Part shown: positions 5,405 to 19,477 of the stretch, piece by piece
Numbering within the stretch: the stretch's first letter is position 1
Layout: each line of letters starts with the position of its first letter
Source: an uncultured archaeon
GTDB taxonomy: Archaea; Asgardarchaeota; Thorarchaeia; Thorarchaeales; Thorarchaeaceae
Assembly (NCBI GenBank): GCA_964473825.1
Contig: CAYYQL010000045.1
Location: forward strand, 1-20,262
Length of the DNA: 20,262 nucleotides
Direction: 5' to 3'
Notes under the pieces: generated by a model
What the model was told of the DNA's origin: nothing
Seen by the model: only the letters and a program-made list of their open reading frames with translations
Databases searched by the model: none
Program-made: the position numbers and the translations under genes

Positions 5405-5872
5405 TCATTCCCTGACATCAGAAGAGGGAGAGATACTCTTAGCCATAGCAGTTAGCCATTCTGCTGCCCACCTCACGTAGACATCACACCTGTCTTGGAT
5501 ATGGGGCTTCTCACGAGCTACGCCGGCTGGATTCATTTCACCATTGTCCATGGCTTTGAGGAATCTGCATCGGACAGTACCCCAATCCTCTGTAAACTCT
5601 GCAATCATCCTGTTCACTAATGAACGCGCCAAGGTGCGTTTCCTATCGAATTCATCGGGCGTTTCAGTCCCATCAGATCCATAGATCAGACCAATGCACG
5701 CCGAGGCGCCACTCACAGCACCGCATATCTCACCCGATCCACCAATACCTCCGCCCAGTATAGAGGCAATCCTCATACATGATGCATTGAAGTCGGGTAA
5801 CGAAACCTCTCTGTCAACTCCAATCATCACACTCTCAGCGCAGTTGAAAGATAGACAGTCCCTGGTCTCCAT
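5405..5872 (-). CDS. C_GCAxxG_C_C family putative redox-active protein
   Basis: NCAESV, GGGIGGSGEICGAVSG, VRCRFL and DRCD give the family's four-Cys pattern. Confidence 0.85.
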   Translation of the reverse strand: METRDCLSFNCAESVMIGVDREVSLPDFNASCMRIASILGGGIGGSGEICGAVSGASACIGLIYGSDGTETPDEFDRKRTLARSLVNRMIAEFTEDWGTVRCRFLKAMDNGEMNPAGVAREKPHIQDRCDVYVRWAAEWLTAMAKSISPSSDVRE

Positions 5873-5993
5873 ACATAATCACGAAGATGCAGGCCACGGT
5901 ATCATAACAAAAAAGTTCGCATTGTTACCTTCGGCAGCGGCCGAAGCAGCATGCTTAATACCCAATTTACACCAGCCAGAACGGGGAAGGAAC

Positions 5994-6461
5994 TTGACCA
6001 CTGTTCAACAATCATTCGAGAACTTGATTGCGCTTGCAATCGAGAGAGAAGAGGAAGCCTATGATTTCTACATGTCAGCTGCTGAAGAGGCTGAGACCCA
6101 AGCATCCACGAAACTCCTGAGAGAGCTTGCCCAACAGGAGATAGGCCACAAAGAAAAGCTGAAGGCTGCACTCAAAGAAGATGTCTGCAGTACCTTCGGC
6201 TGCACACTGGAAGAGATGAGAGAGCTTAGTCTCGGGGACTACCTCAAAGATATCCCCTTGAAACCTTCTTCGTCTCCACAGGAAATCCTTATCGTCGCAA
6301 TCAAGAGGGAAGAGGGAGCATTCCAGTTCTACAAGTCCCTGTCTGAGTTGACAGAAGACCCAAATCACCGAATGGTATTCGAAACTCTGGCAAAGGAAGA
6401 ACAGAATCACAAGCAGCGTCTCGAACGCATGTATGATGATATCTTCCAACCAGATATGTGA
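5994..6461 (+). CDS. Rubrerythrin/ferritin-like di-iron protein without a rubredoxin domain
   Basis: Two E..E..A..FY...E..H repeats (EREEEAYDFY/EIGH and KREEGAFQFY/EQNH). Start reassigned to TTG 5994 after GGGGAAGG, because the track's upstream extension overlaps the divergent gene. Confidence 0.85.
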   Translation: MTTVQQSFENLIALAIEREEEAYDFYMSAAEEAETQASTKLLRELAQQEIGHKEKLKAALKEDVCSTFGCTLEEMRELSLGDYLKDIPLKPSSSPQEILIVAIKREEGAFQFYKSLSELTEDPNHRMVFETLAKEEQNHKQRLERMYDDIFQPDM

Positions 6462-6496: not shown

Positions 6497-7777
6497 CTAC
6501 CTCTCGTGCAGATTCGGTGCCGCAAGAAATGTCAGTCCGCGCTTCGTAAGCTCAGCAGCAGTCCGATTGAGTGAATCGTGCTTATCTAAGTAGTTGCGGC
6601 GAAGATAGCCCACCTCGCCTTTGTCAAGAATATCTTGCTTTGGACGGAAGTAATCCAGAATGTCACTAGGATGCTCTCGCGTCTTATCAATCTCTGGCAC
6701 TGCTCCCTCATGCTTTGCGCTTATGTTCTTCACGTGATCAGCTAGATCCAGAAGCTCATCCAGTCGGTCGTAGGGTTGCCTAACGATACTCTTGTAGGTC
6801 TCCGTAATGTGATGCTCAATCCGAACTACATCTGTAAAGCCGAAACTCTTCCTTATGTAGGCAGCCATCTCGATGGTTTCATTATCTACGCTGTTCGCCA
6901 GATTGAAGCCAATGAGGGGGGTCGTCCCATCATCTCGACTGAAGAGCTTGGCAGTCAGGAGGGTCCAAAGACACGCATAGGGATTGTCATTACCCATAAA
7001 GACGCTGATCTTGAACTCCATGTCAATGCCAAGTCTATGCATCATGTATCCAATGAGGACACTTCCAGGATTGATGTTCAGTACCTGCTTGACTCCGTAC
7101 TTGGTATAGTAGTGAAGATACTCGTCAGCCCAGTCGATTGGAAAGTGGTTGGGCATCCCCACACCTCCAAAATAGCCTGTGATGGTCGCAGGACCACCCA
7201 GATGGATGTTTGTTGGTAGTCCCTCCTCATTTGGTTTGGTGCCCTTGGTGTCAAGGGTTTCTACATAGGAGGAACCTGCCACCTGCATTGCAGCTGCAAA
7301 GGCAAGGATTTGGTTGTCCTCCACCTGCTCAGCCATGTTTCGTACGCGTATGAACCTGCCCGGCATCAGATCTTGATTTTCGATTGCTACTTTGGCTTCG
7401 TCGATGAGCCAAGGGAAGTATTGGCATGCGCTGATTTCCAGAGTCACAGCAAAGCTATCATCAAAAACCATAGAATCCACTTCGTCACCCAGAATCTTAC
7501 GTCTGTAGTCGGATACTGAGATGAATGCATCATCATCTCGCTGTTCCTGTAGCCAGAGTATGTCCTCGACGAAGGGTGAGTCGGCCTCCTCAAGCCGTTC
7601 CATTAGATTCTCGAGTCTGCGAGCATCTTTCGCCTTCCGGTTAATCTCCTTGATACCGCCGTGTTTCTCAATCACCTCAAGAACATCATTGACGAGAGGA
7701 TTGTCCTCGTCAAGAAAGAAGTCATTGATCTCTTCGAGCCGCTCAGTAGGAATGGTGATTCTGTGCCTATCAGTCAT
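6497..7777 (-). CDS. Uncharacterised soluble protein (~426 aa), possibly a peptidase-U32-like TIM barrel
   Basis: Long ORF with protein-like composition; ATG 7777 preferred as start. The fold guess rests only on remembered similarity of the segment G(V/I)..L...G......G....FKISV.MG.DNP...FN to U32-family proteins. Confidence 0.7.
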   Translation of the reverse strand: MTDRHRITIPTERLEEINDFFLDEDNPLVNDVLEVIEKHGGIKEINRKAKDARRLENLMERLEEADSPFVEDILWLQEQRDDDAFISVSDYRRKILGDEVDSMVFDDSFAVTLEISACQYFPWLIDEAKVAIENQDLMPGRFIRVRNMAEQVEDNQILAFAAAMQVAGSSYVETLDTKGTKPNEEGLPTNIHLGGPATITGYFGGVGMPNHFPIDWADEYLHYYTKYGVKQVLNINPGSVLIGYMMHRLGIDMEFKISVFMGNDNPYACLWTLLTAKLFSRDDGTTPLIGFNLANSVDNETIEMAAYIRKSFGFTDVVRIEHHITETYKSIVRQPYDRLDELLDLADHVKNISAKHEGAVPEIDKTREHPSDILDYFRPKQDILDKGEVGYLRRNYLDKHDSLNRTAAELTKRGLTFLAAPNLHER

Positions 7778-7863: not shown

Positions 7864-8466
7864 CTAAGCCTTTCTTAGATGAACTACAGACTCTTCGGCT
7901 ACATGTTCAATTTCCACTGGACCCTCCGTCCCTCCGACGTCGAAGTCACTCAGATACTTTCTCACAGTAGGTCCCACTATTGCCGCGATAATGCCGCCTG
8001 CGGTGACCTGAATCCAGTTCACAAGCAGGAGTTCCTCCAGAGCCACGACTAGACCGAACAGCACATACTCGAAGTAAAAATATCCGGCCAACATCGCAAT
8101 GGCTCCAAGGAGTATTCCCGTAATGTCCCACTTTGTGAGTGTTGATGATTTCTTTGACTGGGCAGAGAGCAATCCTACAAGAAGTCCCTCTATTCCCTTG
8201 ACCACGAAAGTTATCGGCGCAAAATGACCAAATCCCAAAGCAACATCAGCAACTGCTGACCCTACGCCGCCTGCAAAAAAACCACCAACAGGGCCAAGTA
8301 AGAGTCCGCTGATCATGACGAGTGAATCGCCAAAGTTCAGATACCCGGTACTCGTTGGAAAAGGAATAGATATCATCATTGTCGCTACAGTTGTCAGTCC
8401 AGTGAATATGGCGGTGAGAACCAAGTAGACAGTGGGGTTGAGTGTGCTCGCACTCCATCGCTTCAA
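7864..8466 (-). CDS. ECF transporter S component (resembles the COG4720 HmpT/PdxU2-like group)
   Basis: About 5-6 hydrophobic helices. A...L..VATM.I.IP...GYLNFGD......LLLGP..G..AGG.GSA.AD...G....AP.TF..KG.EG is a typical S-component pattern. TTG start with GGAGG 9 nt upstream. Confidence 0.85.
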   Translation of the reverse strand: MKRWSASTLNPTVYLVLTAIFTGLTTVATMMISIPFPTSTGYLNFGDSLVMISGLLLGPVGGFFAGGVGSAVADVALGFGHFAPITFVVKGIEGLLVGLLSAQSKKSSTLTKWDITGILLGAIAMLAGYFYFEYVLFGLVVALEELLLVNWIQVTAGGIIAAIVGPTVRKYLSDFDVGGTEGPVEIEHVAEESVVHLRKA

Positions 8467-8521
8467 TCTTTTCTTCCTCCGTCCTGCAGGTCAGACAGGG
8501 ACAGGAGCAATCGGCCCACAG

Positions 8522-8550
8522 ACATATATAAGTTTGAGCCTATATATAGG
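8522..8550. promoter_or_regulatory. Divergent promoter core / candidate operator: two TATA-like palindromes
   Basis: ACATATATAAGT (8522-8533, imperfect palindrome) and CCTATATATAGG (8539-8550, perfect 12-bp palindrome), between divergent starts at 8466 and 8562. Confidence 0.6.
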
Positions 8551-8561
8551 TGCGATGTTCT

Positions 8562-10058
8562 ATGTCTTTCCTCACTGACTTCCGTTGCACCTCTTGTGGT
8601 CATCGGCATGACCCAGATTCTTATTATGTGGTCTGTTCGCGCTGTGGCGGAATCTTGCACGCCAAATACAACCTCGATAGCGCAAGAGAGAAGATCAGCA
8701 GAGAAACATTTCGAGGTCGGAAGAAGAGACTCTGGAATTACCACGAAATCTTACCCATACTGGACTCTGATGGACAGGTCAGTCTTGGTGAGGGAGACAC
8801 GTTTCTTCAGAGAGGGAATCGATTGGCAGAACAACTAGCCATGAAGAGCCTATACCTGAAGGACGAAACAAGAAATCCCACGGGGTCTTTCTTGGACCGA
8901 GGTATCTCTGTAGAGATGACCAAAGCAAAGCAGATCGGGCGGGCGGGAGTGTCCTGCGGGAGTACAGGCAATCTTGCGGCCTCGTTGGTTGCCTATGCAG
9001 CACGAGCGGGGATGGAGAGCAGGGTCTTCATTGCACAGAGAGGAAACGTGGACATCGGAAAATTCCATCAGATCCTCGCATACGGGGCAGAGGTAGAGAT
9101 TGTGGCAAATCATCAGGACGCAATGAAGAGAGCAGCAGGGATTAGTCACGAATATCATAACATCCTGCCCTACAGTCCGTTCTTCCTTGAGGGCATAAAG
9201 ACCACAGGAATTGAGGTAGTAGAGCAACTGGATTGGGAGAACCCTGATTGGATTGTACTTCCGATGGGTAATGGAGGACACCTGTCGATGACTTGGCGAG
9301 GTCTGCAGGAGCTAGAACACCTCGGTCTCATTGATGAAGTGACACCCCGTCTAGTAGGAGTTCAGGCTGCAGGATGTGCACCCATCGTCGAGGCCTTTGA
9401 GTCCAAGAGCAAGAGGATAGAACCGGTAGAGGCCCAGTCTACAGTGGCCCTAGATATCGGTGTTGAGAATCCGTCCTGCGGGCGCCTTGCCTTAGAGGCC
9501 CTTCGAGCGTCTGACGGCGAGGCAGTAGCTGTGACCGATGATGAAATATTGGACGGCGTGCGACAACTTGCCAGCCGCGAGGGAGTCTTTGCGGAACCTG
9601 CAGCGGCTACGACAATCGCAGCACTGCACCATCTGCTGGCAGATGGTATCGTCCACCGAAATGACCGCGTGGTCTGTCTAATCACAGGAATGGGGTTGAA
9701 GTATCCAGATGTAACACGTGCCCTCGTGAAGGGGAGGGGAAAGCTGGAGTACCTCCTCAGCAGAATAGAGGGGCGAGGATATACAACCGAGATTGGACAG
9801 ACAAAGCAGTATATCCTGAAGATCCTGTCCGAAGGTGAATCGTATGGATATGACATCTGGAAGACTCTTGCAGAACGATTCGGTATCAAGATTAAGGTGC
9901 CAAGTGTCTATCAACACCTCTCCGAGCTCAGAAGTAGTGGACTCATCGTGGAAACACATTCTAAACTCAGTGCCGAAAGACGACAACGCAACTACTATGA
10001 CCTATCGGATCGTGGAAGATGGACGCTTGACCAGTTGGAGAAGATGTCGCACGAGTAG
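8562..10058 (+). CDS. Threonine-synthase-like (PLP fold type II) protein lacking the catalytic Lys, with N-terminal Zn ribbon and C-terminal PadR wHTH
   Basis: CxxC..CxxC; SLGEGDT; LKDETRNPTGSFLDRG (K to L); STGN; PMGNGG; EPAAA; TGMGLK. Then ILKILSEGESYGYDI...VYQHLSEL..SGLI....R.RNYY.L...GR (PadR). ATG 8562 preferred over GTG 8550, which lies inside the promoter palindrome. Confidence 0.88.
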   Translation: MSFLTDFRCTSCGHRHDPDSYYVVCSRCGGILHAKYNLDSAREKISRETFRGRKKRLWNYHEILPILDSDGQVSLGEGDTFLQRGNRLAEQLAMKSLYLKDETRNPTGSFLDRGISVEMTKAKQIGRAGVSCGSTGNLAASLVAYAARAGMESRVFIAQRGNVDIGKFHQILAYGAEVEIVANHQDAMKRAAGISHEYHNILPYSPFFLEGIKTTGIEVVEQLDWENPDWIVLPMGNGGHLSMTWRGLQELEHLGLIDEVTPRLVGVQAAGCAPIVEAFESKSKRIEPVEAQSTVALDIGVENPSCGRLALEALRASDGEAVAVTDDEILDGVRQLASREGVFAEPAAATTIAALHHLLADGIVHRNDRVVCLITGMGLKYPDVTRALVKGRGKLEYLLSRIEGRGYTTEIGQTKQYILKILSEGESYGYDIWKTLAERFGIKIKVPSVYQHLSELRSSGLIVETHSKLSAERRQRNYYDLSDRGRWTLDQLEKMSHE

Positions 10059-10176: not shown

Positions 10177-10569
10177 ATGGCAGACAAGAGTTGGTTGCAG
10201 ACAGACGATTGGAAAAACGAGAAACATGTACCCGTAATCGAGTGTCCTGACGAGGTGAAGAAAGGCGAATTGGTGGAGGTTACAGTATCTGTTGGAAAAG
10301 AGATACCCCATCCCAATACCACTGCTCATCACATCAAATGGTGTGATCTGTTCTTCTGGCCTGAAGGAGAGAAGTTCCCATACGAAATCGGATACACCAG
10401 CTTCGATGCACACGGTGCCTCAGTGAAGGGCGCAGACACGAGTACAGTTTACGCAGAGCCTCAGACAAAATATGTATTCAAGACCGACAAACCCGGCACA
10501 GTGATGGCCACATCATATTGTAACATCCACGGACTGTGGAAAGACGAGAAGAAGCTCAAGGTCAAATAG
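10177..10569 (+). CDS. sor: 1Fe superoxide reductase (neelaredoxin / class II SORL)
   Basis: EKHVP, HPNTTAHHI and CNIHG iron-ligand motifs. Start reassigned to ATG 10177 after GAGGA. TATA-like TTTTAA near 10103. Confidence 0.92.
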   Translation: MADKSWLQTDDWKNEKHVPVIECPDEVKKGELVEVTVSVGKEIPHPNTTAHHIKWCDLFFWPEGEKFPYEIGYTSFDAHGASVKGADTSTVYAEPQTKYVFKTDKPGTVMATSYCNIHGLWKDEKKLKVK

Positions 10570-18440: not shown

Positions 18441-18749
18441 TTATTTGATGCCTAGTTCTTCCATCTCCTCTTCGACTTCTTTCATCCCTTCGTCGTAGAG
18501 GCCCTTCTCATCGGGAGCAAGATGATAGAGCAATCTGAGGAACTCTCCGGCATGCACTCGTTCTTCATTTGCGATATCAATGAGTACTTCTTGTGCAAGC
18601 TTGTTATCTGTTGATTCCGCCAATTGCATATACAGTTGAATGGCCTCATACTCTGCTGCAATCATGTATCTGATTGCGCGGATGAGTTCTTGGTCTGTGA
18701 GTTTCCTGTCATTAGCAAGTCCTGAAAAAGCGTCTGCATACTCGGGCAT
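18441..18749 (-). CDS. Short ferritin-like protein of the encapsulated-ferritin (EncFtn/Flp) type
   Basis: 102-aa two-helix half-ferritin with AEYEAIQLY and DIANEERVHAGEF, matching my recollection of the Pyrococcus-type EncFtn pattern (AELDAINLY / EEKAHVGEF). Confidence 0.8.
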   Translation of the reverse strand: MPEYADAFSGLANDRKLTDQELIRAIRYMIAAEYEAIQLYMQLAESTDNKLAQEVLIDIANEERVHAGEFLRLLYHLAPDEKGLYDEGMKEVEEEMEELGIK

Positions 18750-18979
18750 TTTCCATCAGCACGATGTCAGTATGAAGGTCTTAAATGCCTTATCAAATGG
18801 AAAACAGAACGCATAGTGATTGTAAGATTACAAATCGGAACTAAAATGGCTTGGTCTTGCCATTTCGCACCGCTTAAAAATGTCCCCGTGGAAGGGTTCA
18901 TGCATCATGAAGGTTTGATAGAAGAAGTCAGACGACTATTCTGTCCAACACGATGCGAACAAATGGACGAATGAACAAC

Positions 18980-19477
18980 ATGGGAAAACGAGGAAGAGAG
19001 ATAGTTAAGTTAGATGTAGATGAACTCATAGGCCTTTTGAACAAGGCGCTCGCCGATGAATGGCTTGCGTACTATCAGTATTGGATAGGAGCGAAGGTCG
19101 CAGTCGGACCCATGAGAGGAGCAGTTGTTGCAGAGCTCATGGAACACGCAAACGATGAACTACGTCACGCAGATATGATAGTCGAGAGAATCATCCAGCT
19201 CGGTGGCGACCCACTGATAACACCAGAGAAGTGGTACGACGAAACCAATTGTGGCTACGAAACCCCGAGCGATCCCTCGGTGAAAGCACTGCTTGACCAG
19301 AACATCAAGGGCGAACAGTGCGCCATCGATGTCTATGACAAACTCCTGAAGGTAACAGAAGGCAAGGACCCCGTTACATACAACATGGTTCTCGAAATAC
19401 TCGAGGATGAGGTCGAGCACGAAGAGGATCTTCAGGCCTTGGTCGAAGACATGATGATTGCCAAGGACCTCTACTAA
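18980..19477 (+). CDS. DPS-like (DPSL, thioferritin) ferritin-family protein
   Basis: ADEWLAYYQYW, DELRHAD...RI.QLGG, Cys pair (NCGY, EQCAI), D.VTY...IL.DEVEHEEDL. ATG 18980 preferred; 18953 and 18971 possible. Confidence 0.88.
   Translation: MGKRGREIVKLDVDELIGLLNKALADEWLAYYQYWIGAKVAVGPMRGAVVAELMEHANDELRHADMIVERIIQLGGDPLITPEKWYDETNCGYETPSDPSVKALLDQNIKGEQCAIDVYDKLLKVTEGKDPVTYNMVLEILEDEVEHEEDLQALVEDMMIAKDLY

Follow-up and report, generated by a model that had tools for sequence, protein, structure and literature searches.

Archaeal vitamin regulators such as ThiR and RbkR consist of an enzyme domain joined to a helix-turn-helix (HTH) domain, and they control genes for vitamin synthesis and uptake. 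MocR proteins combine an N-terminal GntR domain with a fold-type I aminotransferase domain, in which the Schiff-base Lys is usually present. The bacterial regulator PdxR is encoded divergently from pdxST, and MocR regulons include pdxU transporters and RimI/RimL acetyltransferases (PMC5320631). In its apo form, PdxR activates pdxST and represses itself, with PLP serving as an anti-activator (PMC5320631). MocR proteins are absent from Archaea (PMC5320631), and the transporters for vitamin B6 are unknown in most prokaryotes (PMC9997740).

We analyzed a 20,262-nucleotide stretch of DNA (the window), which is contig C45 of a 3.27-Mb Thorarchaeota genome (labelled G000, 95.7% complete). It encodes a putative regulator that resembles PdxR and other MocR proteins in the fusion of a winged HTH (wHTH) to a sensor derived from a PLP enzyme, in the linkage to pdxST or B6 transporter genes and in a conserved predicted operator. 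Unlike MocR proteins, it has a fold-type II enzyme domain, a PadR domain at the C terminus and no Schiff-base Lys, and it does not satisfy the MocR domain definition; regulator and PdxR are convergent, not homologous. ThiR and RbkR follow the same design principle but have different sensor folds, vitamins and HTH families. The joining of an enzyme-derived sensor to an HTH is thus a known design, whereas we found no description of a ThrC-fold/PadR combination as an archaeal B6 regulator, nor of any PALP-PadR regulator or archaeal B6 regulator, in the literature searched. Most subscription papers were outside that literature, and this is not proof of novelty. From comparative evidence we consider it likely that this protein acts as a one-component transcription factor, controlling the supply of vitamin B6 and sensing PLP or a related vitamer; its ligand, its binding to DNA and whether it activates or represses are inferences.

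A PadR domain fused to a threonine synthase fold

The genes and protein features of the locus are as follows.

6497-7777, minus strand: conserved 426-aa TIM-barrel protein of no known family, located downstream of the S gene in Thorarchaeia only
7864-8466, minus strand: ECF S component of the HmpT/PdxU2 type, candidate importer of B6 vitamers and main target gene (PF07155, E 2e-31)
8562-10058, plus strand: regulator gene, 498 aa, with an N-terminal CxxC-CxxC zinc-ribbon-like segment, a ThrC-fold sensor domain and a C-terminal PadR winged helix
8778-9689, plus strand: PALP domain (PF00291), retaining Phe110, Asn137, the Gly236/Gly238 phosphate loop, Glu345-Pro346 and Thr375
8892-8894, plus strand: Leu111 (TTG) at the Schiff-base Lys position, motif SFLDRG, from codon reading and alignment
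9183-9185, plus strand: Phe208 at the position of the threonine synthase Arg (NPYRxEG motif), from the alignment; Phe in 119 of 120 homologues
9813-10031, plus strand: PadR winged-helix DNA-binding domain (PF03551), from a Pfam match

A preliminary description of this DNA had proposed that a complete PadR domain is fused to a ThrC-fold domain, and that the gene lies head-to-head with that of an ECF S component. Both proposals held up in our Pfam searches. PALP matches residues 77-380 of the 502-aa frame (E 8e-67) and PadR residues 422-494 (E 1e-14), the latter covering the full model (positions 1-74 of 75) with 54.2 bits against a gathering cut-off of 27; no stop codon lies between the two domains, and the divergent gene at 7864-8466 is a PF07155 member. 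The regulator likely starts with the ATG at position 8562, since a GTG at 8550 would overlap the palindrome described below, and Leu111 and all other regulator residues are numbered from this predicted start. A structure model of the protein (pLDDT 86.8) has its best fold matches among the threonine synthases. Each of the 120 closest homologues has the PALP-PadR architecture as well. Conservation of the protein extends over many archaeal lineages, and the residues of its pocket and wHTH are invariant.

Loss of the catalytic lysine and retention of the cofactor pocket

The Leu codon TTG in place of the Schiff-base Lys was confirmed, and the earlier argument that a single-base error is unlikely could be extended. 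Position 8892 is covered by contigs of three sequencing runs from two studies without any listed difference, two of which may share the source of the window DNA. The 120 closest homologues contain Ile (103) or Leu (17) at this position but never Lys, in line with the proposed pseudoenzyme state, and nine different Ile/Leu codons and one Val codon are used across loci. A sequencing error is ruled out by the contigs, the homologues and this codon diversity. In the scored GTDB loci, too, the residue is Ile, Leu or Val, with Lys absent in 79 of 79. The accompanying claim that the rest of the frame is intact stands with respect to the uninterrupted frame and the complete PadR domain; the active site, however, is not fully intact, with Phe208 replacing an Arg that we take to be the binder of the substrate phosphate in true threonine synthases.

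Phe110, Asn137, Gly236, Gly238, Thr375 and Lys380 are invariant in the 120 homologues, and Glu345-Pro346 is kept in 119 of them. These residues presumably provide the ring-stacking, O3', phosphate-loop and pyridine-nitrogen contacts to PLP, but no paper confirming the residue roles in Thermus threonine synthase was found in the literature searched, which excluded most subscription papers. As judged from the alignments, the sensor domain is a pseudoenzyme in which the cofactor pocket residues are kept and the loss of the Lys is family-wide. ThrC from Aquifex (2ZSJ), Thermus (1UIM/1V7C) and Bacillus (6CGQ) has the same fold, with ~35-38% identity in structural alignment. The regulator meets the definition of a threonine synthase in its fold-type II PALP domain but not in its Schiff-base Lys or substrate-phosphate Arg, and it further differs from ThrC in its extra PadR domain and B6 gene context.

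Among 116 more distant relatives, the Lys position is occupied by Leu (38), Ile (18), Arg (16), Val (13), Met (11) or Lys (11). The Lys and Arg forms fall into one clade, which also lacks the substrate Arg, and in three of four loci checked for this subclade the S component adjoins the regulator. Lys loss therefore does not define the regulator; our tree is a quick, midpoint-rooted version, and we draw no order of Lys loss from it. Close orthologues that keep the Lys and show no linkage to transporter or B6 genes would have spoken against a pseudoenzyme sensor, and none was found. A search for a separate Lys-intact thrC returned two ThrC-like paralogues with the Lys in the genome, on contigs C4 and C6; neither is established as a true threonine synthase.

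Automated pipelines had been expected to label the regulator a threonine synthase, and they do so because it passes the PRK08197 and TIGR00260 cut-offs. NCBIfam PRK05638.1, a "threonine synthase" model of 442 positions, covers the whole regulator including the wHTH, with a full-length score of 277 bits that remains below the curated cut-off of 421. This cut-off is passed by P0473, a relative with Arg at the Lys position, and the family is therefore already present in databases under an enzyme name. From these scores, PRK05638.1 appears to describe a subclade of the PALP-PadR fusion family; we found no regulatory description for this enzyme-labelled model.

The regulator gene neighbors genes of vitamin B6 supply

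We examined the neighbors of the regulator in 80 GTDB loci from Thor-, Hermod-, Sif-, Borr-, Baldr- and Njordarchaeota, Bathyarchaeia, Nitrososphaerota, Thermoproteota and Thermoplasmata-like genomes. In 60 loci the regulator has a homologous ECF S gene nearby, nearly always in divergent orientation, in 8 loci from several phyla it has pdxS-pdxT, and in 12 it has neither, which bears out the link to a B6-type S component suggested from the window alone. PdxS occurs in 9 of 43 non-Thor regulator genomes, in 8 of these beside the regulator, and in none of the 23 non-Thor genomes in which the S gene adjoins the regulator. The S gene and pdxST exclude each other as neighbors of the regulator. No recurrent threonine-pathway gene was identified among the neighbors. 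This context provides a strong, if comparative, link between the regulator and vitamin B6. All genomes compared are incomplete assemblies.

The only PDB match of the S component is 4HZU_S (HmpT/PdxU2; E 5e-9), the protein from Lactobacillus brevis and its only solved homologue, which has been shown to bind pyridoxamine (PMC4860826). Tyr120, Asn140 and Gln143 of the HmpT pocket are kept in the S component and in 38 of 38 Thorarchaeia copies, whereas Glu41 is changed to Asp, Trp76 to Phe and His84 to Lys; three residues are thus identical, two conservatively replaced and one changed. The vitamer of the archaeal protein may therefore differ from that of HmpT. Three CbiQ/EcfT genes on other contigs of the genome could supply the energizing module, as in group II ECF transporters. 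We consider the S component a candidate B6-vitamer importer. Its gene is present in 79 of 87 Thorarchaeia genomes. PdxS was found in none of these 87 genomes, and the window's genome yielded no PdxJ match and only a weak match to the PdxK family.

A conserved palindrome upstream of the transporter gene

The 95-bp intergenic spacer contains an AT box, a 7-nt linker and a palindrome.

8524-8531, no strand assigned: left AT box, which is the TATA box of the leftward transporter gene and persists in genomes lacking the regulator
8532-8538, minus strand: 7-nt spacer at the BRE position between operator and transporter TATA box; spacing of 7 in 57 of 59 scored loci
8539-8550, no strand assigned: perfect 12-bp palindrome CCTATATATAGG, candidate operator and best site in the 3.27-Mb genome

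The left box probably serves also as the TATA box of the regulator gene and, 18 bp away from the palindrome, as a second, degenerate operator. Using a weight matrix built without sequences of the window's genus, we found that the two-box site scores 45 bits, with no other locus in the genome above 14. Of the 87 Thorarchaeia genomes, 44 have the pattern, and these are the genomes with the regulator (43, and one in which it is cut by a contig end); the pattern is absent from the 43 without it, and a reversed control pattern gave no match in Thorarchaeia genomes. About half of the Thorarchaeia genomes lack the regulator and keep the transporter. Presence and absence of the regulator both occur within single genera (g6, g10, g12), which suggests that it was lost repeatedly. 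In such regulator-lost genomes, the S gene abuts the superoxide reductase gene, and the left box and linker survive in most loci read while the palindrome is lost. The left box is therefore the transporter TATA box, and the palindrome depends on the regulator. The related Thorarchaeia genomes are not independent in this co-occurrence, the box is AT-rich and TATA-like, and it is cis-linked to the regulator in Thorarchaeia, so that one deletion could remove both.

In convergent or separated loci (L084, L193, L195), it is the S gene and not the regulator that has the box upstream. Unlinked S genes also carry it, in genomes G105 (16.7 bits), G123 (16.8, twice), G096 (12.4), G112 (9.9) and G114 (7.6); a score of 7.6 is reached by six of the 182 windows of loci scored in this search, the targets among them. 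In the eight genomes with pdxST beside the regulator, no box was detected at S-like genes (score at most 0.1), and in 6 or 7 of the 12 genomes without a B6 neighbor of the regulator there is no convincing box at the S gene. Where regulator and target gene are apart, the predicted site goes with the target gene.

A model for B6-dependent control and its alternatives

We propose that the PadR domains bind the 12-bp palindrome, the step we infer with most confidence. The ThrC-fold domain would, with good probability, bind PLP or a different phosphorylated vitamer non-covalently. A shortage of B6 would lead to expression of the S component (or, in prototrophs, of pdxST), and the ligand would switch this expression off. 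For the sign of control we lean slightly toward activation of the target and autorepression of the regulator, as for PdxR, because the box lies directly upstream of the target BRE-TATA, a position typical of archaeal activators, and between the start of the regulator gene and its probable TATA box, which is close by. TFB-RF1 is one such activator that binds just upstream of the BRE (PMC5937170). All evidence for this model is comparative; there are no binding or expression data.

Repression is common among PadR proteins, and the same regulator could act on the same targets in this way, with ligand-bound oligomers covering both boxes 18 bp apart and blocking TBP/TFB at the promoters of the transporter gene and of the regulator gene itself. 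Two or three boxes indeed recur at ~18-bp spacing and co-vary in some lineages (L073, L075, L086, L099, L195), the left box overlaps the TATA box, and the near-identical core promoter kept in regulator-free genomes fits repression as well as activation. Simple occlusion is harder to reconcile with unlinked targets that have a single box, 6-7 nt ahead of a TATA box without resemblance to the box (G105, G096, L084, L193), and the fixed spacing of 7 suggests a contact with TFB. We regard repression as less likely than activation but as an option to be taken seriously.

Other alternatives concern the ligand or the existence of a sensor. The ThrC ancestry of the domain, the S/T-G-N loop kept in most Thorarchaeia members and the inference that a Lys-less pocket could hold an external aldimine would suit a phospho-amino acid (phosphohomoserine, threonine) or a PLP-amino acid adduct as the ligand in place of a free vitamer. 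This option, raised in the preliminary description, has been weakened: none of the members scored has kept the Arg for the substrate phosphate, the Ser-Thr positions are free to vary among distant members, and no recurrent threonine-pathway gene was identified nearby. It appears improbable to us. Even less probable is a role in the supply of HMP or thiamine precursors. The S-component family was first named HmpT, PF07155 includes S components of several specificities, and four loci have a gene of the ThiL/AIR-synthase fold close to the S gene, but the alternative neighbor is pdxST (8 loci, several phyla), the sensor has a PLP-binding fold and HmpT itself was found to bind pyridoxamine (PMC4860826). 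It is equally hard to maintain that the palindrome is a mere part of a bidirectional promoter and that the protein is a decaying or moonlighting enzyme without a sensing role. The TATA-like motif, the subclade that keeps the Lys (11 of 116 in the distant set) and the NCBIfam name threonine synthase for related proteins would allow for this, yet the motif is the only strong two-box site in the genome, is missing from the 43 regulator-free genomes and follows the target in trans, and the protein is conserved across many archaeal lineages with its pocket and wHTH residues unchanged.

Returning to the activator model in its fullest form, the protein would be what controls vitamin B6 in many archaeal lineages and has so far gone undescribed: a pseudoenzyme of fold type II, reading free PLP non-covalently and recruiting TFB from the box 7 nt before the TATA box. 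We consider the case for this complete combination to be evenly balanced.

Other genes near the locus and candidate regulon members

The 426-aa TIM-barrel gene may be co-transcribed with the S gene, but its membership of the system has not been shown. The protein has no Pfam or NCBIfam match and at least 8000 homologue clusters; it is present in 79 of 87 Thorarchaeia genomes, with ~70-78% identity outside the window's genus. Its structure model (pLDDT 94) consists of a TIM barrel and a helical N-terminal part. We considered it as a B6 enzyme and rejected this assignment: there is no specific fold match (best Z 12, with many ties) and its relatives are found among sugar genes, two of them elsewhere adjoining sugar kinase, Dak and IlvD/Edd genes. 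For these reasons, and because it is absent from non-Thor regulator loci, we do not count it as a core part.

A gene of the AIR-synthase/ThiL/HypE fold lies near the S gene or the regulator in four loci (L084, L090, L091, L187). The window's genome, in which a clear pyridoxal kinase is missing, encodes a homologue (G000:C4:95809-96798; L218:6810-7820), and we see in this protein a candidate B6 salvage kinase. The box is found upstream of nitroreductase-family genes (L076:7265-7816, L086:7046-7567, L184:184-744), two of them divergent from the regulator and one unlinked; a function as vitamer oxidase is possible but speculative. In two Thorarchaeia genomes a second motif copy precedes a gene for a DUF89/ARMT1 damage-control phosphatase (L157:105-130, L158:3370-3395), a possible regulon member. 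A GNAT acetyltransferase gene is often the first gene behind the operator (L159:3450-4062; L033, L035, L036, L038, L040, L041, L070) and has its own box in G061; bacterial PdxR regulons likewise include RimI/RimL acetyltransferases. The box also occurs upstream of a DJ-1/PfpI gene in a Bathyarchaeia genome (L057:12208-12875).

Rubrerythrin and superoxide reductase genes flank the locus (window 5694-6461 and 10177-10569, both plus strand), in an order kept across Thorarchaeia, and two more ferritin-like genes, read by eye, are located near the window end (18441-18749 and 18953-19477, both minus strand). Downstream of a regulator flanked by two boxes, L074:9112-10205 contains pseudogene-like fragments that by eye resemble dihydroxy-acid dehydratase and PanB. 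In hot-spring Nitrososphaerota (L083, L085, L087, L096), the regulator runs into a cassette read by eye as UbiX/UbiD/aconitase-X-like, probably a case of chance synteny.

Implications for vitamin B6 in Archaea

PALP-PadR proteins are counted as threonine synthases in metabolic reconstructions, a systematic annotation error that can now be corrected. Our analysis provides testable candidates for an archaeal B6 regulator and a B6 transporter, together with a defined 12-bp site. We know of no route by which the window's archaeon could make the vitamin, and the locus suggests that Thorarchaeia import B6 from their surroundings. In the regulator, a PLP-sensing transcription factor would have arisen independently and from another enzyme fold, and it would sense PLP without covalent attachment. 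If it indeed controls B6 supply by recruiting TFB, the genes in its regulon would reveal the archaeal B6 importer and lead to unknown salvage enzymes (the AIR-synthase-fold kinase, the nitroreductase-fold oxidase and the DUF89 phosphatase) in those Asgard archaea in which PdxS, PdxJ and a clear PdxK are missing.
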